Below, piece after piece: positions 3,392 through 14,924 of a stretch of 20,866 bases of DNA. The stretch is taken from positions 1-20,866 of IMG/VR virus record IMGVR_UViG_2534682222_000015. One strand, given 5' to 3'. The notes beneath the pieces were generated by a model. The model had not been told where the DNA came from and did not search any database. It saw only the letters and a list, made by a program, of their open reading frames with translations. The position numbers were made by a program, and so were the translations under genes. Source of the stretch: a virus. Lineage: Duplodnaviria > Heunggongvirae > Uroviricota > Caudoviricetes. Every line of letters begins with the position of its first letter. Within the stretch, counting starts at the first letter, position 1.

Positions 3392-4179
3392 TACTTCGCC
3401 TCCAGCGGAGGTTCTGGTAGCGGCATCCAGTGAGTTGCTTGCTCAATACCATTACCCGGCTTAATCGTTGCATCTCCGCGCCGAAAGGTGCTTCCGGTAT
3501 AGCGTGCGGAGCATATTAGCGGTTCAACCAGAGAGCTATCGAAATTCACCGAAATAAGCACGTTCTGGCCCTTTTCAGGCATTCGCTCACTACAGCTTAT
3601 CCAACTATCCGAAATTACCGGAGAGTTGCCAGGCTTCACATATCCACTGTGTGCGTCGGCATCGTATTCAAGAATGTCCGGCTCCTCTGACAATTCACCA
3701 ATCAAATGGCGCATGCGGTCAGATTTGTAGCGAACGCGGTCAGGATGCTCGGAACGCTCGATTGTGATGCCTTCCCATGGGTGCTGGCCTTTTCGATGCA
3801 GCATTGCGGTCCAGTTTGTTTTGCCGTTCGTTTCAGGCATTGATCCGTACCAGACTGTTAGTTCTGGCTTGCCATCGGCACCCTGAAGCATGGCGGCGCG
3901 GCAGGCTTCAAATACCGCATTGTTAAACCTCACACCTTCAAAAAAGATTTTCCCATTATGCTCAAACCAGAACTCGGACTTCTCAACATCGGGTAAGAGG
4001 CTTTTAAGCACGCCCTCAGACACTGATAACACCGCTGGCTGCGGTAACTGTGGTGCTGTGCTAGTGAGCATGGACATCAACGCGCAGATGGTGTCCTCGC
4101 TGATTTCAAACATACCACTGGCGTTCTGCGTCGAGGCTTTCAGGTCTTCGATAATGCTCTGTTTCGTAAATTCAGCCAT
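3391..4179 (-). CDS. Hypothetical phage protein (262 aa), Trp-rich C-terminal region
   Basis: Long ORF in operon orientation, tightly packed with neighbours; no confident family assignment. Confidence 0.6.
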   Translation of the reverse strand: MAEFTKQSIIEDLKASTQNASGMFEISEDTICALMSMLTSTAPQLPQPAVLSVSEGVLKSLLPDVEKSEFWFEHNGKIFFEGVRFNNAVFEACRAAMLQGADGKPELTVWYGSMPETNGKTNWTAMLHRKGQHPWEGITIERSEHPDRVRYKSDRMRHLIGELSEEPDILEYDADAHSGYVKPGNSPVISDSWISCSERMPEKGQNVLISVNFDSSLVEPLICSARYTGSTFRRGDATIKPGNGIEQATHWMPLPEPPLEAK

Positions 4180-4182
4180 ACC

Positions 4183-4587
4183 CTACCCCCCCACCTTAGT
4201 GATGATACCATCGGCGATTTTTTTCGGGCTATATGCTGCTATGCATTGCTCATATCTAGCCTGGTCGTTTGTCTGTCCGTAGCTAAAACCATGCTGAAGG
4301 CCATGGCGAAACGCGCTATCCTGCAATTTGTCAGTGGCTTGGAGTTTCGCCTCCAGCTCAGCGTTGCGCCTGTCTTTGGATTCCAGCTCATCCAGCAGCG
4401 CCAGCACGGTAGTGGGGTTTGCTGCGGAGTTCAGCGCGTTCAAGGCAGTGATATCTGCATCAAGCTGAGTTCCTTCTGCCAGTGAGATATCGAAAATGTC
4501 ATCAGGCGGCATAACACTAAGGCGCTCATGTGCGCCAACTGCTGCCGCTGCGATTTCACGCAGCGCCTGTTTGTCGATGTTGCTCAT
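4183..4587 (-). CDS. Hypothetical phage protein (134 aa from MSNIDKQ…; ORF track shows longer 152-aa frame)
   Basis: AGGAGG RBS 7 nt upstream of internal ATG at 4587; ATGA overlap with stop of upstream gene. Confidence 0.55.
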   Translation of the reverse strand: MSNIDKQALREIAAAAVGAHERLSVMPPDDIFDISLAEGTQLDADITALNALNSAANPTTVLALLDELESKDRRNAELEAKLQATDKLQDSAFRHGLQHGFSYGQTNDQARYEQCIAAYSPKKIADGIITKVGG

Positions 4588-5419: not shown

Positions 5420-5708
5420 TACTGATAGCGCCATAGCGTGAGCGGTAATTACGCAGGCGCGGGTCGATATATTCAGGGAAGTGGGTATATGTGGCTTTGC
5501 GGAATGGTCGGATTGATGTCTGGTAAATTCGCTCTCGTTCTTCTTTCTCTGCAAGCCATATACAGTGGCGAAATTCCTTTTCCTCTTTCGTTTCCTGCGG
5601 TAGAGACATTATCCGGTCGTAGTTTTTCCTGAATTTATCCAGCACCTCCGATACGGAATTGCCGGAACAGCGGCGCGCGTCGTCCGCACCATACAGAGGC
5701 GCTGGCAT
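5412..5708 (-). CDS. Hypothetical protein (98 aa)
   Basis: AAGGA RBS upstream of ATG at 5708; operon context. Confidence 0.5.
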
Positions 5709-5731
5709 AATGGAATCCTTATGTTGCTACT

Positions 5732-6115
5732 TTAGAAGGGAATTGAATCGTCGTATTCAGGATGATTTTGATGATTGCTACTTTGCTGCTGTTGGCTGTT
5801 TCCTGAGGTTGCAAATCCAATCTTTGCATTCAGTAATTCAAGAGTGATTGATTGACCATTTTGCCCCTGATAAACATCAACCCTGATGTTTTCTCCGGTA
5901 ATTTCCACAATGCCACCTTCAACAAGAACGCTACGGTAGTAATCCGCTTGCGCTCCCGGCTTGGCAAATACAACGGCGCTGTAGTTTGTCCATTCTTTCT
6001 TTTTTGTCTGGCGATCGTAATACTGAACGCCAGCACGGATGTTGAATCCGATATTTTCCCCGGCCTGAAACTCTCTTGCGGGCTTGTTTAGTCTTACAGT
6101 AATCGAATGTGCCAT
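5732..6115 (-). CDS. ssb: Single-stranded DNA-binding protein (phage SSB; acidic C-terminal tip …EYDDSIPF)
   Basis: 127-aa ORF ending in the DD(S/D)IPF tail characteristic of bacterial/phage SSB; directly downstream of erf. Confidence 0.7.
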   Translation of the reverse strand: MAHSITVRLNKPAREFQAGENIGFNIRAGVQYYDRQTKKKEWTNYSAVVFAKPGAQADYYRSVLVEGGIVEITGENIRVDVYQGQNGQSITLELLNAKIGFATSGNSQQQQSSNHQNHPEYDDSIPF

Positions 6116-6821: not shown

Positions 6822-6980
6822 TTATGGCGATACCAGAGAGCTTTCTGCGTGTACATGCGTCTCTGTAACTTGCTCTCCTTCACTGTGGTTGCAAGTGACA
6901 TGAATATCTCCTTCGTTACCGATTAATTCTTTCATCTGACGAATGAATTCTTCGTCTGACCAGTTATCTGTAAAACTCAT
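6822..6980 (-). CDS. Hypothetical small protein (52 aa; MSFTDNWSDEEFIRQM…), possibly Arf-like accessory recombination gene
   Basis: Manual translation; ATGA overlap with kil stop; position between kil and erf as P22 arf. Not in ORF track (<60 aa). Confidence 0.35.
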   Translation of the reverse strand: MSFTDNWSDEEFIRQMKELIGNEGDIHVTCNHSEGEQVTETHVHAESSLVSP

Positions 6981-7129
6981 TTCCTGCGATACCACGGAAG
7001 GTTGATAGCTGATTTCATCGCTTTATTTGCTTCAAGCCACATTTTTGAATCACCAATAAATCTGGCTATTACTGCTTTGTTCTGTGCAGCACGAAGCATC
7101 TGGTGATTGATGGCTATTTCATTGCGCAT
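6977..7129 (-). CDS. kil: Kil-like host-killing (FtsZ-inhibiting) small protein (50 aa)
   Basis: Manual translation MRNEIAINHQMLRAAQNKAVIARFIGDSKMWLEANKAM…; FIGDxKM motif and position immediately downstream of cIII as in lambda. Not in ORF track. Confidence 0.5.
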   Translation of the reverse strand: MRNEIAINHQMLRAAQNKAVIARFIGDSKMWLEANKAMKSAINLPWYRRK

Positions 7130-7245
7130 AATAAGACCTCAACTCTTTTCCATCCGTCACGTAATTTACGGGTGATTCGTTCAAGTAAAGATTCATTTAA
7201 TTGGAAGGCACCCATGCGAGCGCCTCCCGCGATTGCGTAAATCAT
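7114..7245 (-). CDS. cIII: CIII (FtsH/HflB inhibitor) homologue (43 aa)
   Basis: Manual translation MIYAIAGGARMGAFQLNESLLERITRKLRDGWKRVEVLL…; the ESLLERITRKLRDGWKR core matches lambda CIII from memory; AAGGA RBS. Confidence 0.7.
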   Translation of the reverse strand: MIYAIAGGARMGAFQLNESLLERITRKLRDGWKRVEVLLCAMK

Positions 7246-7269: not shown

Positions 7270-8238
7270 TTAGTAGGTTATTTTTGTTGCGAATACTTCG
7301 CCTTTTACGATGGCTGTTATGATATTTTTAGCAACATCTTCTGATGCGCCAACCTTGATAAGGTCAGCAAGTATTTTGTTATTTACTTCTTTCCGGTGAG
7401 CTTTATCCTTTGCTCTACACTCTTCCTCTTCCTTGATTCTTTTTTCTTCTGCTATTCTGGCTTGCTCTTTTGCTTCAGCCTCGCGCCGGATTCGTTCAGC
7501 CTCCTCCTGTGCTTTTCGGCGTTCTGCTTCAATTGCCGCCTGCTTTTCTCTTTCAGCTCGTTCTGCTGCCTCTTTTGCTTCGCGCTGTGCTCGTTGCTCG
7601 GCTTCAATGCGTTCACGCTCTGCACGTTCCGCTGCGGCCTTAGCTTCTGCTTCTCGCCTTGCTGCTGCTTCAATTTCGGCTTTTGCCTTTGCTTCGGCTT
7701 CTGCTCTGGCTTTCTCTTCAGCTTCTCTTTTTAAGCGTTCTTCATGCTCTCGCTTTTCCTGCTCCGCTTTGAGTCTTGCCTCTTCTCTTTGGCGGTCAAA
7801 TTCGCGATCCATCAAAATAGCTATTTCATGGTCAGACTCAATTTGCTTTGCGAGAGCTTCAGCTGCTGCCTTAGCTTCTTCTTCGGCTTTAATCCGTGCC
7901 TGTTCCTCCTCATAATCAGTAAGAGGCTGGCGTGCCTTGGATTTCAGCTCATCAAGGCGATCACGCACTGTCTTGCGGTTGGCATCAATTAGCTTTGGAA
8001 TTTCCTTCAGTTCAGCAACAAGGTCTTTTCCAAGACCATCGAGATATGTTTTCGTCTGCGCAACTTTATACGCCAGAGAAGCGATCTCCTTTCTGCCCTT
8101 TGCCGTTGTGATATCAGGCACAAAGGACATAACTTCACGTTCAACCCTTTGAAGGATTTCTTCAATCTGGTCGGCAGACTGAAATACAGTCATTGCATTT
8201 GCTTTTTCAATAACAACTAAATCTGTTACTTCACTCAT
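7270..8238 (-). CDS. Hypothetical protein with long E/R/K/A-rich predicted single alpha-helix / coiled-coil core (322 aa)
   Basis: GGAGGA RBS; central about 140 residues are almost exclusively E, A, K, R, Q; globular N- and C-terminal ends. Confidence 0.65.
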   Translation of the reverse strand: MSEVTDLVVIEKANAMTVFQSADQIEEILQRVEREVMSFVPDITTAKGRKEIASLAYKVAQTKTYLDGLGKDLVAELKEIPKLIDANRKTVRDRLDELKSKARQPLTDYEEEQARIKAEEEAKAAAEALAKQIESDHEIAILMDREFDRQREEARLKAEQEKREHEERLKREAEEKARAEAEAKAKAEIEAAARREAEAKAAAERAERERIEAEQRAQREAKEAAERAEREKQAAIEAERRKAQEEAERIRREAEAKEQARIAEEKRIKEEEECRAKDKAHRKEVNNKILADLIKVGASEDVAKNIITAIVKGEVFATKITY

Positions 8239-8250
8239 ATATCCTCCGTC

Positions 8251-8276
8251 AAAAAATTGCCCTCACACTGGAGGGC
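8251..8276 (-). terminator. Intrinsic terminator (GCCCTC-loop-GAGGGC + U-run on minus strand) between the 156-aa gene and the 322-aa gene
   Basis: Inverted repeat gccctcacactggagggc at 8259-8276 with A-run 8251-8258 on plus strand. Confidence 0.5.
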
Positions 8277-8380
8277 AAAGAAGATTTCCAATAATCAGAA
8301 CAAGTCGGCTCCTGTTTAGTTACGAGCGACATTGCTCCGTGTATTCACTCGTTGGAATGAATACACAGTGCTTATTCGTA

Positions 8381-8851
8381 CTAATAAAATACCCAATTTT
8401 CTGTTTCTTGGTTGTGTCCAAAGTTATATTCAATATCTGGTGTTGATGTATCAATATTTTTCATCCCATCAACAAGAGTTGATACAACAGCCAAATCTTG
8501 TTTTATTCTCATTAAATGGTATTTCTTCCGGCGCAATAAACTTTCAATAGCAAGTTTCTTCGTTGGGAATGCAAAAGATCTTTCTGCATTTTTTGCTACT
8601 TTCTTAATTGCATATCTATTTCTCTTTTGTTTCCATTCCTGTAACCACTGATTTGGTGCTGGTTTAAAATTAACAATCCAATGCGCAGGAACCAACCATG
8701 CATAATGCTCTGTTTGATGAAAAGCTATATATTGAAGTGCGAATATTTTGATTCCATCTTCTTCAACTGTCGACTGGAATCTCCAGAAAACAGGCATTCC
8801 ATCATGTTCAGTTTCTGATTCAGGAAAAGGTACGCTCCATGATTTTGTCAT
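8381..8851 (-). CDS. Hypothetical protein (156 aa), AT-rich gene flanked by two terminator-like hairpins (moron-like)
   Basis: GAGGTGA RBS 5 nt upstream of ATG; visibly AT-rich relative to neighbouring phage genes. Confidence 0.6.
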   Translation of the reverse strand: MTKSWSVPFPESETEHDGMPVFWRFQSTVEEDGIKIFALQYIAFHQTEHYAWLVPAHWIVNFKPAPNQWLQEWKQKRNRYAIKKVAKNAERSFAFPTKKLAIESLLRRKKYHLMRIKQDLAVVSTLVDGMKNIDTSTPDIEYNFGHNQETENWVFY

Positions 8852-8896
8852 ATCTCACCTCAAATAATTCAGTACAGTGTTTATTCTCTTGTTTAT

Positions 8897-8924
8897 GCCA
8901 AAAATAAAGGCCGACTATGCGGCC
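8897..8924 (-). terminator. Intrinsic terminator-like hairpin (GGCCG-loop-CGGCC + U-run) overlapping the stop of the 207-aa gene
   Basis: Inverted repeat 8909-8924 with A-run 8901-8908 on plus strand. Confidence 0.4.
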
Positions 8925-9538
8925 TCGGAAGGAAGTCCAATCATCTTATTCAAATCTTCTACCCGTAAAGCAGGAAGTGCTGTACTTGCTTTATCTGCTT
9001 CTTTTGGTAGCAACTCTTTGCTTTCAGGCCAAACTTCAATAAGTCGCTTAACTGTTGTGACTGAGTTCAAAGCAGCCCATACATTTGATTCGATATCCTT
9101 TTTCTTGGCTTCAAGTTTTTGTTGCAATGCGCAGATTTCATCAAACCTTTTTGTTATTTCGTGTTCTGCGCTAAACATGCATTTATCTTCGTTCGGAGCA
9201 GGGAGCAATATATCTTCGCCGTTGCCGTCTTTCCCATATGAAAGCCATCCAACCCTTCTGCCAGATACAGTCAGATAAATTGAAGTAGAACGAACATCGT
9301 ATGAGTAAAATGAACATCCCATCTTTCCAAGTTCTTCACTTATAGCTACCAACTTGGATGATAACTGATCCACTTCCTCAGTTTTCTTTTTACCGCCAAA
9401 CGCAATAACTCTGGCGTCAAGTGCAAGCTGGTTCTTTAACTTTGTTACTTCTTCAAGTTCAGTGAAAACCCCAGACTTAATTAAAGCGTTACGAGCGATT
9501 ATCTCTTTCATTCTCGTAGTTAAGCGGATTGATGACAT
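8915..9538 (-). CDS. Hypothetical protein (207 aa from MSSIRLTTRMKEII…), translationally coupled to N; occupies the sieB-like slot
   Basis: GAGAGGA RBS; only 11 nt after N stop; AT-rich; track ORF extends 20 codons further upstream into N. Confidence 0.6.
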   Translation of the reverse strand: MSSIRLTTRMKEIIARNALIKSGVFTELEEVTKLKNQLALDARVIAFGGKKKTEEVDQLSSKLVAISEELGKMGCSFYSYDVRSTSIYLTVSGRRVGWLSYGKDGNGEDILLPAPNEDKCMFSAEHEITKRFDEICALQQKLEAKKKDIESNVWAALNSVTTVKRLIEVWPESKELLPKEADKASTALPALRVEDLNKMIGLPSEAA

Positions 9539-9549
9539 ATTAATTCCTC

Positions 9550-9876
9550 TCAAATAAGTGGTTTGCTGCCTAATTTCATTTTCTGGCGACCAACACAAGT
9601 CACCCCCATTTCACTGCGTGGCTTGCTGTACCATGTGCGCTGATTCTTGCGCTCAATACGTTGCAGGTTGCTTTCAATCTGTTCGTGGTATTCAGCCAGC
9701 ACCGTAAGGTCTATCTGATTCAGTGCGCTTTCTACTCGTGATTTCGGTTTGCGATTCAGCGAGAGAATAGGGCGGTTAACTGGTTTTGCGCTTACCCCAA
9801 CCAACAGGGGATTTGCTGCTTTCCATTGAGCCTGTTTCTCTGCGCGACGTTCGCGGCGGCGTGCTTGTGCATCCAT
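9550..9876 (-). CDS. N: Antitermination protein N (lambda-like, 108 aa)
   Basis: MDAQARRRERRAEKQAQWKAANPLLVGVSAKPVNRPILSLNRKPKSRVESALN… matches lambda N from memory; AGGAG RBS; nutL upstream. Confidence 0.9.
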   Translation of the reverse strand: MDAQARRRERRAEKQAQWKAANPLLVGVSAKPVNRPILSLNRKPKSRVESALNQIDLTVLAEYHEQIESNLQRIERKNQRTWYSKPRSEMGVTCVGRQKMKLGSKPLI

Positions 9877-10048
9877 CTTGATTCTCCTGTCAGTTAGCTT
9901 TGGTGGTGTGGTAGGTGGGAGACCCATTTCGACCTGCTTCGGCCGACTTCAATTCGGCAATAGTTCCGCAGGCCTCGCCGCTTTACGTGCGACATATTCC
10001 CATCCATGAACCCTTCACCACACCCCAAAGCCTTCTGCTTTGAATGCT

Positions 10049-10078
10049 GCGCTTTTTCAGCGCCAGATTTTTAAGAGC
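10049..10078 (-). promoter_or_regulatory. nutL: nutL: boxB hairpin (minus-strand GCGCTGAAAAAGCGC, 10049-10063) and boxA-like GCTCTTAAA (about 10070-10078)
   Basis: Read directly; boxB differs from lambda nutL boxB (GCCCTGAAGAAGGGC) at the stem but keeps the GAAAAA loop. Confidence 0.65.
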
Positions 10079-10118
10079 TTCACCGTCCTGGTGAGTAGTG
10101 CGTCCTGCTGATGGAGCA

Positions 10119-10187
10119 ATATTCACGTATTGTGATTTAAATGTCAATCACGATATGTGTATAATTTATTTATCACACGATATGTGT
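10119..10187 (-). promoter_or_regulatory. PL promoter (-35 TTGACA at 10143-10148, -10 GAATAT at 10119-10124, minus strand) with three OL operator sites of form TCAC-N5-GTG(A/T) at 10123-10135, 10148-10160, 10175-10187
   Basis: Three similar 13-bp dyads spaced about 25 bp apart; same dyad family recurs in OR. Confidence 0.6.
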
Positions 10188-10258
10188 ATGTTTTTAGTGG
10201 GGTAAATAATTTCAAAAAAACGTGATATGCTCAGAAAAACATCAAAGAGGGCATTGTT

Positions 10259-10483
10259 ATGGGGCTGGGAATGGATATGGGTAGGGATGAACTGCTGGAA
10301 GACCGCGCAGCTTTCATCGCTGGCGAGATTGGCGGCGCGGTTGTTGAGTTGATTATCGGAGGGGTGGTGATTAATAGGGATGCGATTGTGGATAGCTTGG
10401 AGACCAAGAGGAGGGCGGTGGGTAATGTTATTCACAAGGGATTGCTGAGGGATGCTGCGGAGTTCGTGAGGAAAGGACAGTAA
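10259..10483 (+). CDS. Questionable small ORF (74 aa) in G-rich, C-poor spacer between OL and the rex-slot gene terminator
   Basis: AAAGAGGG RBS-like sequence 7 nt upstream of ATG; strongly skewed composition; may be non-coding. Confidence 0.2.
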   Translation: MGLGMDMGRDELLEDRAAFIAGEIGGAVVELIIGGVVINRDAIVDSLETKRRAVGNVIHKGLLRDAAEFVRKGQ

Positions 10484-10510: not shown

Positions 10511-11353
10511 TTAAGGCTTCTTCTTATCGTGCTTTACTAGTGCTTTGTGTGTTTTCTTGATACTGCTTCTAACTTTTTGAATTTTATCTTGAGACAACTT
10601 AATACTCTCAGGTGCCGTTCCTGTGTTGGCAATCATTACATTTCTAACAGATCTTCCAACTGTTTCAGCGGCATTTTCAAGTTGCACCTGCCCCTTAAGA
10701 TTCTGGTTTCTTATTCTTGCTTCTGTTTGTGTTATTCGGAAAATGTTAGCAGCAAGTTCTTCGCTGCCCATAAAATCAAGCATTGTTCCATCTTTTTTAG
10801 TTAGTCCTTTGCGGGCTTTCAATTGCGTGAGATTCATGTTGTACATCCCGCGATATCCTGCATTTTGAAAAAGACCATAGTCTACTACGCCATGCTTATG
10901 TGCCACGTGGCTAAGAGTCTTTTCTCTTGAAGTGATTTCACCACGCAAATAAACTCGGTTAACTGCATCATGGTTATGATACGCCGCTTGAATTTCTGCT
11001 GCCAGACCAGCAAAGTATGCCTGAGCATTTGCAACTTTCTGATTGCTAATATCGCCATTCATTACAGTTAAATAGCAAGCAAATCGAGTTAATTTAAAGT
11101 CATTTTGCGCATTCTCAGAAGGCATCTGAATGAAGTTGTCGTAGACGGGGATATCAAGGTTAACGCATACAGACGTTGCCTTGTTGATGGCTTTTAGTAT
11201 CTGGTCCATACCATTATACCCAAGCATCATCGCCAGATCAGATGCGAACCAATAGGTAACACCATTCTCCCTGGCGAAATCATCAAATGTTAACTGTGAT
11301 GCGTCATCGAAAACGGTAATTTGCCTACTCATATCACACCCAAACTTACTCAT
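10511..11353 (-). CDS. Bro-N/KilA-N-like N-terminal domain protein, possibly DinD/RhuM-family (280 aa), in the position lambda uses for rexAB
   Basis: N-terminal motif …TYWFASDLAMMLGY… typical of Bro-N type domains; C-terminal segments (RFACYLTVMNGD, FQNAGYRGMY, MLDFMGSEELAANIFRITQTE) resemble, from memory only, E. coli DinD-like proteins; AAGGGA RBS. Confidence 0.7.
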   Translation of the reverse strand: MSKFGCDMSRQITVFDDASQLTFDDFARENGVTYWFASDLAMMLGYNGMDQILKAINKATSVCVNLDIPVYDNFIQMPSENAQNDFKLTRFACYLTVMNGDISNQKVANAQAYFAGLAAEIQAAYHNHDAVNRVYLRGEITSREKTLSHVAHKHGVVDYGLFQNAGYRGMYNMNLTQLKARKGLTKKDGTMLDFMGSEELAANIFRITQTEARIRNQNLKGQVQLENAAETVGRSVRNVMIANTGTAPESIKLSQDKIQKVRSSIKKTHKALVKHDKKKP

Positions 11354-11512: not shown

Positions 11513-11541
11513 CTTATCACCCAAACGTCTCTTCAGGCCAC
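11513..11541. repeat. Direct repeat copy 2, spanning the cI stop codon and last 7 codons
   Basis: See copy 1. Confidence 0.7.
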
Positions 11542-12164
11542 TGTGACGCAACAACCTTACCAACAACCCGACAGTGCTCATTACACGGCATCATGGGGAA
11601 TTGAGGATTCAATGGCTGGAGAAATATCTGCCCGCTGTCCTTGATCAGTTTCTTAAACGTGAATTCATCGCCACCTAATCTGGCGATACAGAAATCACCA
11701 GGGTCAACCGGTTCATCTGGATCTACAAGAATTAGCATTCCTTCAGGGAAGCTAGGCTTTGAACCAGCAGGAGCCGTCATGGAATGGCCTTCAACCTCAA
11801 GCCAGAATGCATTGTCGCTGGCTTTCTTTGTCGTGCTTACCCATCTCTCTGCATCACGTTCGGTGAATGTGCGAAATTCAGGTGAGAACATACCAGCTTG
11901 TACATGCGAGAAAACCGGGTACTCAAATTTCTGGAATACTGGCCCATTGTCTTCGCCAAAAAGAATAAGCGAAGGAGACACCTTAAGAACCTCAGCAAGC
12001 GTTAACGCATCATCAGCGCTAACTTTTCGCGTGCCAAGCTCATAATTCCCCAGTCGTGAAGGCGCAGCCCAGCCGCAAAGGTTGGCTAACTTTGCTTGGC
12101 TGAGTCCTTTAGCTTCGCGAAGGGACTTTATCCTCTCGCCGATAATTTCATGCATAGTTTTCAT
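11517..12164 (-). CDS. cI: CI-type prophage repressor (N-terminal HTH, C-terminal LexA/S24-like autocleavage domain with GHSM Ser and FKK Lys); non-lambda immunity
   Basis: 215 aa; C-terminal domain resembles P22 C2 (GDSMTAPAG…PEGM.ILVDP…ATFKKL…PLNPQ.P); located divergent from cro across operators. Confidence 0.85.
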
Positions 12165-12493: not shown

Positions 12494-12526
12494 CGCTCTT
12501 ATCACATCTAAGCCCTGAAAAAGGGC
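12494..12526 (+). promoter_or_regulatory. nutR: nutR: boxA CGCTCTTA (12494-12501) and boxB GCCCTGAAAAAGGGC (12512-12526)
   Basis: Exact lambda nutR boxA/boxB sequences between cro and cII. Confidence 0.85.
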
Positions 12527-14325: not shown

Positions 14326-14433
14326 ATGAAATCAAAAATCAAATCGCTACTGGTCGCTGGTTATAACCACGGCTGGTTAAGTATTTCGTTTGTCGATTTC
14401 TGGTTTAAAAATCTCAATCTGAGGGAATCATGA
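14326..14433 (+). CDS. Questionable small ORF (35 aa; MKSKIKSLLVAGYNHGW…) between O-like gene and HNH gene
   Basis: AGGTGA 5 nt upstream of ATG; hydrophobic; low confidence. Confidence 0.2.
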   Translation: MKSKIKSLLVAGYNHGWLSISFVDFWFKNLNLRES

Positions 14434-14924
14434 TGAGCCTTGAAGTTGGAGAATATATACCTGGTTATGAGGGTAAATACTCTGTAACCAAAGACGGTCG
14501 TGTTTATTCACATTTAAGAGGCAGGTTTTTGAATCCATCTCCGGATAACAATGGTTATCTAAGAGTCACTTTGTGTTCCGATGGGATTCAGAAGACGTTA
14601 AAAGTTCATCGTCTTGTAGCTCAATTATTTATCCCAAATCCGTATTGCAAGCCAGAAGTAAATCATATCAACGGCGACAAATCGGATAACGCCATTTGGA
14701 ACTTGGAATGGTGTACCTGCTCAGAGAATTTAAAACATGCTTTTAGCATCGGACTGAAAAGCGCAAAGGGAGTTTTTAATGGTAGGGCAAAACTATCTGA
14801 AACTGATGTGATTGATATCAGGAATTCTGTTGGTATGAAACTAAGCGAACTATCCACTAAATACGGAGTGAGTGAAATGCAAATTTCCACAATCCGCAGA
14901 GGAAACGCATGGAGGCACCTTTGA
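14430..14924 (+). CDS. Free-standing HNH homing endonuclease (NUMOD4-like N-terminus GYEGKYSV…, HNH motif …VNHINGDKSDNAIWNLEW…)
   Basis: 164-aa ORF with the classical HNH_3-type motif; AT-rich; inserted between initiator and helicase genes, overlapping the helicase start by 16 nt. Confidence 0.8.
   Translation: MMSLEVGEYIPGYEGKYSVTKDGRVYSHLRGRFLNPSPDNNGYLRVTLCSDGIQKTLKVHRLVAQLFIPNPYCKPEVNHINGDKSDNAIWNLEWCTCSENLKHAFSIGLKSAKGVFNGRAKLSETDVIDIRNSVGMKLSELSTKYGVSEMQISTIRRGNAWRHL

Follow-up and report, generated by a model that had tools for sequence, protein, structure and literature searches.

A lambda-like prophage with two independent single-gene accessory cassettes in tandem between N and the ral-ea10 spacer

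Introduction

Which genes follow the antiterminator gene N in this lambda-like prophage, and do they belong together? The question is raised by two open reading frames at positions 8381-9538 of the stretch of DNA analysed here (20,866 nucleotides; hereafter, the window), which the initial annotation described as an AT-rich, moron-like two-gene cassette in a ral/sieB-type position, with no recognisable family, and put forward as a candidate novel exclusion or anti-defence module.

Results

A pL operon of lambda type

The host gene next to the integrated prophage belongs to the pectinesterase family and is probably ybhC. Its pL-like promoter (10118-10147, minus strand; TTGACA, 18 nt, AATATT; 10 of 12 consensus matches) lies amid repeated operator-like motifs (TATCGTGATTGACA / ACACATATCGTG), at a position that agrees with pL of HK542. 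It is followed by a boxA-like sequence, GCTCTTAAAAA, and a nutL boxB-like hairpin, GCGCTGAAAAAGCGC (10049-10063, minus strand), and the exact lambda nutR boxB is present at 12512-12526 on the plus strand; two matches were obtained in 0 of 100 shuffles. Next comes the lambda-type N gene (9550-9876, minus strand; Pfam N36, E 5e-25; PHROG 271), which starts with MDAQARRRERRAEKQAQWK and ends with a stop codon at 9552-9550. Beyond the interval under study, the operon continues with a 322-aa Glu/Ala/Lys-rich coiled-coil protein (7270-8238, minus strand; PHROG 1376 and 21365), followed by cIII (7114-7245; PHROG 550) and kil (6977-7129; PHROG 2055).

No terminator-like hairpin was predicted on the minus strand from pL (10147-10118) down to 8926; the scan sees intrinsic hairpins and Rho-dependent terminators escape it, so that the timing of expression discussed below is what we infer from the anatomy of the operon. 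A consensus scan, to which weak or non-consensus promoters are invisible, revealed no sigma-70-like site upstream of either gene, the sole minus-strand site of this type in the area (8773-8745) being located within the shorter ORF. The rex position of the prophage (10511-11353) holds a candidate lysogen-expressed defence gene.

Composition and selection

The interval 8381-9538 has a G+C content of 37.7%, versus 46.9% for the window; only 0.5% of segments of equal length reach so low a value, and the minimum is found in the one starting at 8355. The gene encoding a 156-aa protein has 34.6% G+C (GC3 24.8%) and that encoding a 207-aa protein 40.5% (GC3 34.6%), the mean of the remaining genes being 47.9% (sd 3.8). 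Both ORFs are under selection. The pooled pN/pS of the 156-aa gene is 0.11 (19 alleles), that is, strong purifying selection, and that of the 207-aa gene is 0.40 (10 alleles); the latter evolves faster, by relaxed or diversifying evolution. When distant homologues were compared, synonymous sites were saturated and the proteins were still alignable. The AT-richness, the reality of both ORFs, their limits, their ribosome-binding sites and the hairpins behind them are thus as the initial annotation had them. Its statement that neither gene has a recognisable family does not hold, and its claim of novelty falls with the 97-99% identity of these genes to others in HK542, HK244, H-19B, 933W and phi24B, and with the membership of one of them in a named Pfam family, as detailed next.

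The first gene after N encodes an Nmad5-family protein

The 207-aa gene (8915-9538, minus strand) starts with an ATG at 9538, 11 nt past the N stop codon, is preceded by the ribosome-binding site GAGAGGA and stands in the place of ral in lambda. Its product matches Pfam PF18757, Nmad5, over the full length of the profile (residues 4-203 on positions 1-206 of 206; E 1.4e-70; 238 bits, the curated cut-off being 27), belongs to PHROG 1965, is 97-98% identical to the proteins of HK542 (gp33) and HK244, and is labelled "Nmad5 family putative nucleotide modification protein" in RefSeq. An alignment of 14 sequences with identities down to 23% left ten invariant residues (G93, L166, W170, P171, E172, P178, L196, N197, G201 and P203), which bear little resemblance to a set of catalytic residues. 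A C-terminal signature, L..WPE..EL.P...LN..G.P, is common to the window protein and to the Vibrio, N4-like, Dhillonvirus and YuA members. The AF2 model (pLDDT 85.5) revealed no enzyme-like fold, and a Foldseek search against BFVD retrieved only Nmad5 or unnamed phage proteins. Searches by sequence against solved structures gave nothing under E 0.1 for either the 207-aa or the 156-aa protein, NCBIfam gave no significant family for either, and neither has a predicted transmembrane segment, both being hydrophilic (GRAVY -0.28 and -0.60 for the two).

The family occurs across lytic and temperate phages, and its gene neighbourhoods differ. In YuA, the neighbours of Nmad5 (gp15) are a putative dU hydroxymethylase and a putative kinase, together with genes whose annotations read threonine dehydratase and DNA repair photolyase; M6-like phages carry the same cassette (PMC9476957). 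An N4-like phage has it between ThyX and a PD-(D/E)XK nuclease, adjoining the primase, and in two Vibrio phages it lies directly upstream of the replication-initiator gene. The Vibrio and N4-like members are, as here, single-domain proteins of about 207 aa; those of YuA, M6/SN1 and the Dhillonviruses share with ours the full-length domain and the C-terminal signature. The window copy differs from these in having no modification genes around it and in lying directly after the antiterminator gene of a temperate phage; the Dhillonvirus protein differs in length (254 aa in SECphi18), is encoded on the opposite strand within the head module and is about 33% identical over the C-terminal half. The literature we found demonstrates no activity for any Nmad5 member, and our searches on Nmad5, mEp235 and a lambdoid anti-defence hotspot found no study of a lambdoid one. 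The Dhillonvirus gene resisted cloning, apparently through toxicity, and is dispensable, its deletion being viable; a single Lys-to-Glu change in its product allows the phage to escape the Tmn defence system (PMC11846954).

The second gene encodes a basic protein of PHROG 1636

Behind the ribosome-binding site GAGGTGA, the 156-aa gene (8381-8851, minus strand) encodes a protein of PHROG 1636 (E 1.7e-111), a family of unknown function, and is followed by a terminator-like hairpin at 8278-8257. The protein is 98-99% identical to L0079 of 933W, vb_24B_11c of phi24B and an unannotated ORF of H-19B; literature searches on L0079 and vb_24B_11c found no study of either. Pfam and NCBIfam hold no family for it. 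The only match returned by PADLOC for the two proteins, with none for Nmad5, was Cas1_II against the 156-aa protein (13 bits, E 0.01, over 46 residues), which we took as chance and rejected as an identity. A profile search of 1.84 billion representatives yielded 88 relatives of about 130-155 aa, none with a Pfam domain; the PHROGs concerned (1636, 13631 and 25384) are all "unknown". The protein has a pI of 9.05 and a basic central segment with a net charge of +7 per 30 residues. Its model is poor (pLDDT 63.6), which makes a weak basis for the "basic helix" referred to below.

Each gene is a cassette with shared junction sequences

Short shared sequences delimit both genes. The last bases of N, TTATTTGAG (9557-9549), reappear ahead of the 156-aa gene, so that this sequence precedes both ORFs, and GAATAA(A/G)CACTGT lies downstream of both, its second copy at 8377-8365. 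At the junction between the two genes (8859-8886, minus strand), GAATAAACACTGT (8886-8874) is followed by TTATTTGAG (8867-8859). The Nmad5 gene itself ends in an intrinsic terminator-like hairpin, GAGGCCGCATAGTCGGCCTT with a T-run (8899-8926, minus strand), whose stem-loop (8926-8907) has the TAG stop codon of Nmad5 in its loop. This hairpin, or its variant AAGGCTGCCTGATGGTGGCCTT, also closes unrelated genes found in the same interval of other phages, namely Ral, PHROG 1372, 2471 and 3054, and the 156-aa gene at locus L041; lambda ral ends in the variant AAGGCTGCCTGATGGTGGCCTT, and the bases following the Nmad5 stop codon are those following the ral stop codon. On the other side, the 156-aa gene is followed by a conserved non-coding element (8251-8371, minus strand), which corresponds, with 99.2% identity, to the 121-nt ral-ea10 spacer of lambda (33925-34045). 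The shared junction sequence is TTATTTGAG at the upstream end of a cassette; at the downstream end it consists of the terminator hairpin and GAATAARCACTGT. The Nmad5 cassette holds exactly the place of lambda ral, with N 11 nt upstream and no predicted terminator between, and the 156-aa cassette sits between the Nmad5 terminator and the spacer's own terminator.

Comparison with relatives shows the two units apart. HK542 lacks the 156-aa gene, that is, the stretch between the duplicated GAATAARCACTGT repeats, and in H-19B N is joined directly to the 156-aa gene, without Nmad5. Exchange at the shared boundaries looks more like allelic cassette replacement than like insertion between two genes.

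The two genes are distributed independently

After N, HK542 and mEp235 carry Nmad5 only, and H-19B, 933W and phi24B the 156-aa gene only; lambda itself and many close relatives that grow normally have neither. Among 5426 complete E. coli genomes, Nmad5 is present in 211 (gene-only query) and the 156-aa gene in 598, and the two are adjacent in 48. They share the slot in one of the 106 viral-contig slots listed, the 156-aa gene follows Nmad5 at only 6 of 80 Nmad5 loci (close relatives only), and a search of 50,697 phage records did not find the tandem once. In Cronobacter, Pectobacterium and a metagenome, the 156-aa gene has homologues with no Nmad5 nearby. Distant homologues of both do occur in one early operon, two genes apart, in Vibrio phage vB_Vp_PvVp04_M, where that of the 156-aa gene is the second gene; the related Vibrio phage Athena1 has Nmad5 and an unrelated gene at the other position.

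The ral slot and its occupants

The interval that holds both cassettes is bounded by N on one side and by the ral-ea10 spacer on the other, and lambda sieB lies in it too. We surveyed it in 106 viral contigs among the matches listed, related contigs being counted individually. It proved hypervariable, with 42 ORF families in mixed combinations; Ral is the commonest occupant (29 contigs, against 22 for the 156-aa gene and 12 for Nmad5) and alone has a function attached to its name; of the 41 remaining families, most are uncharacterised. Among these contigs, Ral, the 156-aa gene, Nmad5, PHROG 1372 and PHROG 2471 are each found ahead of the same gene pair, PHROG 1273 and 10407. The membrane-protein family PHROG 3054 is another of the occupants. 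No slot contains both Ral and the 156-aa gene, where about 6 such cases would be expected (Fisher p = 3e-4, uncorrected for contig kinship). Nmad5, however, is not simply a substitute for Ral, because Ral precedes it at about 10 of the 80 Nmad5 loci (about 12%). Neither of our proteins matched PHROG 1055 or any other Ral model, which a true Ral from the slot did match.

Discussion

Between N and the ral-ea10 spacer, the prophage carries two accessory cassettes of one gene each, one behind the other, and we are highly confident that they are independent, already known cassettes of the ral slot. The position proposed by the initial annotation is borne out by the slot comparison and by the near-identity of the spacer to that of lambda; the two-gene module is contradicted by the separate distribution of its members. 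The moron-like character was correct in part. Lambdoid morons, as defined in HK97 and HK022, are extra genes of atypical composition with their own promoter and terminator; the genes described here agree with them in their patchy occurrence among relatives with precise boundaries, their lower G+C content and their 3' terminators, but differ in having no promoter of their own that a consensus scan detects; they would be read with the operon and not independently in the lysogen.

The closest parallel is lambda itself. Its N-ral-ea10 interval is the same slot at the nucleotide level: N comes first, a hairpin of the same terminator type closes the gene and the 121-nt spacer is shared. Ral and the window genes replace one another ahead of identical downstream genes. 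Like them, Ral is a non-essential early pL-operon gene present in some relatives only. Ral differs in its size (66 aa versus 207 and 156 aa), with no sequence or fold similarity to either protein. In addition, lambda has the terminator tL1 between N and ral, whereas none is predicted here between N and Nmad5.

Both genes are probably expressed from pL in the lytic phase. From the anatomy of the operon, they would be silent in the lysogen and transcribed from pL upon induction or infection; Nmad5 would be made along with N, ahead of any need for antitermination, and the 156-aa gene after N-modified polymerase has passed the first terminator. Given this position and the features of the proteins, both products might exert their effect during the first minutes of lytic growth, through binding rather than catalysis: the invariant C-terminal WPE...LN..G.P module of Nmad5 could contact a host protein or a DNA-associated factor, and the basic helix of the 156-aa protein could contact nucleic acid or an acidic partner. 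They would thereby disable a host barrier or seize a host function, as Ral does against type I restriction from the same slot. Since Ral is the most frequent and the only named occupant, an early counter-defence role is a reasonable hypothesis. By this analogy, a role in counter-defence or host takeover comes close to an even chance for Nmad5, and may be suggested more tentatively for the 156-aa protein. The apparent toxicity of the Dhillonvirus Nmad5 and its link to Tmn escape (PMC11846954), as well as the higher pN/pS of Nmad5, count in favour of this reading. For the complete chain (cassettes, pL-driven lytic expression, and counter-defence or host takeover) we estimate a probability of roughly 0.5. 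Several points weigh against its last step. First, slot sharing with Ral is guilt by location, and Ral is found ahead of Nmad5 at some loci. In addition, Nmad5 also occurs in replication modules (N4-like, Vibrio) and in the thymidine-hypermodification cluster of YuA, so that a general role in DNA metabolism fits equally. Besides, the basic helix comes from the poor model of the 156-aa protein.

In the strongest alternative, the genes would be accessories of phage physiology, Nmad5 being a DNA- or replisome-associated factor that aids early replication or recombination, and the 156-aa protein a small nucleic-acid-binding regulator of early expression. The neighbours of Nmad5 in the N4-like and Vibrio phages, its occurrence in lytic and temperate phages alike, the early operon that holds a distant homologue of the 156-aa gene in one of these Vibrio phages, and the purifying selection and basic core of the latter protein are in agreement with it. 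We nevertheless consider it doubtful, as both genes are missing from lambda and from many relatives that grow normally, both are swapped with Ral as cassettes in a hypervariable slot, the Dhillonvirus deletion is viable (PMC11846954), and the pN/pS of Nmad5 is relaxed or diversifying.

Two further functions are disfavoured. Participation of Nmad5 in base or nucleotide modification, shielding phage DNA from restriction, would suit the ral slot and the name of the family, which was given from gene neighbourhoods; YuA gp15 lies in one of this kind, and M6-like phages carry the same cassette (PMC9476957). It is nevertheless quite improbable here, where the 20.9-kb window encodes no hydroxymethylase, DNA kinase, aGPT-pyrophosphorylase, radical-SAM or PLP enzyme, and where Nmad5 has neither an enzyme-like fold nor an invariant catalytic set; the label "nucleotide modification protein" finds no support in the lambdoid context. 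Lambda-like phages with Nmad5 (HK542, mEp235, Stx phages) are, to our knowledge, not known to have modified bases.

Superinfection exclusion or defence of the SieB/Rex type, with expression in the lysogen against other phages, develops one of the functions first suggested, and the presence of sieB and of PHROG 3054 in the slot, together with a low G+C content as in many morons, would favour it. It fits poorly and is very unlikely: both genes are sense-oriented in the repressed pL operon and the consensus scan shows no promoter-like site ahead of either, neither product has a transmembrane segment or a significant PADLOC model, Pfam and NCBIfam assign neither to SieB or to another exclusion family, and the rex position already has its candidate lysogen-expressed gene. 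Least probable of all is a functional pair, for instance an effector and its partner, since adjacency in 48 E. coli genomes and one shared early operon in vB_Vp_PvVp04_M stand against the far greater frequency of each gene alone, the scarcity of shared slots and tandems, the terminator and duplicated junction sequences between the genes, and the unrelated neighbour in Athena1.

Returning to counter-defence or host takeover by independent cassettes, the locus resembles known anti-defence clusters, such as the T7-like early region with Ocr, in being a hypervariable early locus with conserved bounds, filled with stacked small unrelated ORFs, one of which (Ral) is a proven restriction inhibitor. 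It differs from them in that Ral is the sole occupant of known function, and "anti-defence island" is here a hypothesis. It is tempting to speculate, although as a whole this is unlikely, that the N-to-spacer interval is an immediate-early counter-defence island of 40-odd cassettes, each disarming a different host barrier, where Nmad5 would be a binding protein rather than a modification enzyme and would interfere with, or be detected by, a factor of host immunity or DNA maintenance (e.g. the KAP-NTPase Tmn), and the 933W L0079 family a second, unrelated inhibitor. As sequences, both genes are ordinary, since textbook phages and hundreds of E. coli genomes contain near-identical copies. What is of use is the map, in which the lambda ral position is a cassette-exchange site with fixed junctions and dozens of unrelated early genes. 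It narrows the search for counter-defence or host-takeover functions to a small, clearly delimited set of candidates, among them the gene that directly follows N in the main Shiga-toxin phages.

The conserved spacer merits a final comment. Two hairpins, one of them with a perfect 12-bp stem (8366-8339), and the terminator at 8278-8257 lie within it, and its predicted RNA fold is unusually stable (-46.4 kcal/mol; z = -4.78). Rfam gave no match on the whole window, nor at a permissive threshold on 8100-10200. We considered the element as a possible small RNA and dropped this candidate, the element being the lambda ral-ea10 spacer with its terminators, which may still have a role as RNA; at its place, the phage 21 record has an annotated bidirectional terminator.

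Results

Two genes follow N in the pL operon

Both open reading frames downstream of N are real genes. N itself (9550-9876, minus strand) lies behind a pL-like promoter (10147-10118, minus strand) and a nutL-like boxA/boxB (boxB at 10063-10049, minus strand), and an exact lambda nutR boxB at 12512-12526 marks this N system as lambda-type. After the N stop codon (9552-9550), the 207-aa gene (8915-9538, minus strand), hereafter Nmad5, begins at the ATG at 9538, preceded by GAGAGGA; the 156-aa gene (8381-8851, minus strand) starts at 8851 behind GAGGTGA. A longer, 227-aa call for Nmad5, from a TTG within N, was rejected as the true start because every homologue begins at the MSS(I/V)RLT methionine. 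Two terminator-like hairpins are present, one at 8926-8907, whose loop contains the Nmad5 stop codon, and one at 8278-8257, so that the 156-aa gene is bracketed by predicted terminators on both sides. No terminator was predicted on the minus strand from pL to 8926, hence none between N and Nmad5, and no promoter-like site precedes either gene. The stretch 8381-9538 has 37.7% G+C, compared with 46.9% in the window as a whole, and is essentially the lowest segment of its length (156-aa gene, 34.6%; Nmad5, 40.5%; other genes, 47.9 ± 3.8%). The coordinates, starts, ribosome-binding sites, paired hairpins and AT-richness reported in the initial annotation were thus correct, the last by windowed calculation.

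Across genera, at identities of 55-98%, 40 columns of the 156-aa family are invariant; its pooled pN/pS is 0.11 (19 alleles) versus 0.40 for Nmad5 (10 alleles). Amino-acid changes are far more numerous among close Nmad5 alleles (loci L019-L126) than in the 156-aa gene; within Nmad5 they cluster between residues 58 and 150, and the C-terminal 55 residues are constant. Changes private to the allele in the window occur at 114-123, one of them being Ala in place of a nearly invariant Thr114.

Families and predicted structures

The absence of any recognisable family, as initially claimed, does not hold for the 207-aa protein, which gives a full-length match to Pfam PF18757 (Nmad5; E 1.4e-70) as well as a match to PHROG 1965, and is labelled "Nmad5 family putative nucleotide modification protein" in RefSeq. 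The claim is half right for the 156-aa protein, for which Pfam, NCBIfam and PADLOC gave no family and which belongs to PHROG 1636, annotated as function unknown. Its gene is 933W L0079, phi24B vb_24B_11c and an unannotated H-19B ORF (98-99% identity); both genes being common and catalogued, neither can be called novel. When 1.84 billion representative proteins were searched with a profile, the 156-aa family grew to 88 proteins of approximately 130-155 aa, among which no Pfam domain was found and all PHROGs were "unknown".

The AlphaFold model of Nmad5 is good (pLDDT 85.5): three long helices come first, then a beta-hairpin and a fourth long helix, and a small helical module forms the C-terminus; in BFVD it matched solely other Nmad5 or unnamed phage proteins. 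The residues invariant across Vibrio, N4-like, Dhillonvirus and YuA homologues (G93, L166, W170, P171, E172, P178, L196, N197, G201 and P203) look like the signature of a binding module, with no obvious active site. The protein is neutral (pI 6.65) and so no Ocr-type DNA mimic. The model of the 156-aa protein is poor (pLDDT 63.6) and its structural comparison gave no significant match; the ends of this protein are acidic and its centre is strongly basic, with a conserved RRKKYHLMR(L/I)KQD helix.

A cassette-exchanging ral slot

The proposal that these genes occupy the N-proximal position held by ral in lambda was borne out. Lambda ral ends in a hairpin followed by GGCCTTTATTTTTGGCATAAATAACAGAATAAACACTG, and the identical bases stand 3' of the Nmad5 stop in the window, which places Nmad5 exactly in the ral position. 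Downstream, a 121-nt non-coding element (8251-8371, minus strand) is 99.2% identical to the lambda ral-ea10 spacer (33925-34045). Folding gives three hairpins (z = -4.78), the last being the terminator at 8278-8257; the element has no Rfam family and occurs in 327 phage records independently of the preceding gene. A bidirectional terminator is annotated at its site in the phage 21 record, and in the lambda literature the tL2 terminator cluster begins here. The element sets the constant right-hand boundary of a variable slot, and may also function as a processed RNA. Many unrelated slot genes are closed by the terminator hairpin GGCCGCATAGTCGGCC, or its lambda-ral variant GGCTGCCTGATGGTGGCC; in several of them it overlaps the stop codon (8899-8926 in the window; slot loci L015, L038, L041, L058, L077 and L109). 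Since the stem encodes the C-terminus, Ral, PHROG 2471 and Nmad5 all end in KAA or EAA, and the hairpin appears to double as a recombination junction.

The slot was surveyed by an exact search of IMG/VR for the 28-nt hairpin of the spacer, which gave at least 120 loci; among those listed, the 106 with a lambda-type or H-19B-type N upstream were analysed, without de-replication, so that counts describe this sample and not natural frequencies. Between N and the hairpin, these 106 slots hold at least 42 families of ORFs. Counting all architectures, Ral was the most frequent occupant (29), followed by the 156-aa gene (22) and Nmad5 (12); others were a two-segment membrane protein, PHROG 3054 (at least 11 loci), a 293-aa protein (at least 6 loci) and several small proteins. 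Ral was the sole occupant among the matches listed to belong to a family of named function. Ral, the 156-aa gene, Nmad5, PHROG 1372 and PHROG 2471 were each found 5' of the same pair, PHROG 1273 followed by PHROG 10407, a pattern of allelic cassette replacement. Ral and the 156-aa gene never shared one of the 106 listed slots (approximately 6 expected, p = 3e-4, related contigs included); Ral and Nmad5 did so in one of them, and in about 10 of 80 Nmad5 loci. The comparison is chiefly of value for delimiting the ral slot as a site of cassette exchange from which testable candidates can be drawn.

Independence of the two genes

Two independent cassettes, and not the two-gene module of the initial annotation, occupy the slot in the window. 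Among 5426 complete E. coli genomes, 211 carried Nmad5 and 598 the 156-aa gene, with both adjacent in 48; the tandem was found in none of 50,697 phage records, and among close Nmad5 loci in IMG/VR, 6 of 80 had the 156-aa gene 3' of Nmad5. N is followed by Nmad5 and then directly by the spacer in HK542, mEp235, HK244 and many Stx1a phages, and immediately by the 156-aa gene in H-19B, 933W and phi24B. Homologues of the latter also follow N, without Nmad5, in a prophage of Cronobacter and in a phage from a metagenome, and a Pectobacterium homologue adjoins xis/int. The origin of the tandem can be read from its junctions: TTATTTGAG, with which N ends (9557-9549), recurs directly 5' of the 156-aa gene (8867-8859), and GAATAA(A/G)CACTGT stands 3' of both genes (8886-8874 and 8377-8365), these junctions being single around Nmad5 in HK542 and around the 156-aa gene in H-19B. 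A contrary observation comes from Vibrio phage vB_Vp_PvVp04_M, in which a distant 156-aa homologue (3992-4441; hhalign probability 97.7%) and Nmad5 (5439-6071; 38% identity) lie two genes apart in one early operon; its relative Athena1 has Nmad5 but an unrelated gene in place of the 156-aa homologue. We tentatively read this co-occurrence as two early-operon accessory genes meeting anew, not as linkage.

Discussion

From their place in the operon, we infer that both genes would be silent in the lysogen and made within the first minutes of the lytic cycle: Nmad5 alongside N and already before antitermination, the 156-aa gene once N has acted. Less firmly than this timing, the slot's sole characterised tenant, the cassette turnover, low G+C and dispensability, the link to Tmn and the faster evolution of Nmad5 point towards proteins that may work by binding rather than catalysis, serving counter-defence or host takeover; we put this tentatively at roughly 45% for Nmad5, and consider it somewhat less probable for the 156-aa protein. 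In the one experimental paper on Nmad5 that we found (PMC11846954), a Dhillonvirus Nmad5 resisted cloning, being apparently toxic, and was dispensable; a single Lys-to-Glu change in it gave escape from Tmn defence, and deletion did not.

The main rival, an ordinary function in the DNA metabolism of the phage or in early regulation, seems to us less probable; Nmad5 lies between ThyX and a PD-(D/E)XK nuclease in an N4-like phage, and immediately 5' of the replication initiator in Vibrio phages. In Dhillonvirus it stands by itself among the head genes, on the opposite strand. DNA modification is suggested by YuA, where Nmad5 belongs to a thymidine-hypermodification cluster, the source of the family name (PMC9476957), but is improbable here, as the window holds no candidate partner enzyme for base modification. 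Superinfection exclusion, initially proposed for these genes that would be silent in the lysogen, is less probable still, and an obligate pair, despite the 48 adjacent occurrences, is highly improbable given how often each gene stands alone.

Other genes of the early region

The window covers the early region of a lambda-like prophage; the integrase and excisionase are of the lambda type, and a pectinesterase-family host gene, probably ybhC, adjoins the region. Upstream of pL on the minus strand is a cI-like repressor gene (11517-12164), and directly 3' of it, in the position of lambda rexAB, lies a 280-aa DinD/Bro-N-like gene (10511-11353; G+C 40.5%) followed by a terminator (10506-10485). 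Its product strongly matches the PADLOC candidate-system model PDC-S13 (E 6e-85), and it is a better candidate for a lysogen-expressed defence gene than Nmad5 or the 156-aa gene. Between it and pL, a convergent 74-aa ORF (10259-10483, plus strand; PHROG 3975, E 2e-36, annotated as function unknown) shares a bidirectional terminator with it, in a region of strongly positive GC skew (+0.36). Beyond the spacer, a 322-aa coiled-coil protein (7270-8238, minus strand), called "TolA-like" in other annotations, consists mostly of Glu/Ala/Lys/Arg repeats and matches PHROG 1376 and PHROG 21365, both without assigned function; gene 17 or ea10 replaces it in some relatives. The minus strand continues with cIII, kil, erf, ssb-like, abc2, Ea22-like and DUF551 genes, xis and int. 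On the plus strand, an HNH/NUMOD4 homing-endonuclease-like ORF (14430-14924; G+C 39.8%) is inserted between the initiator O and primase-helicase genes.
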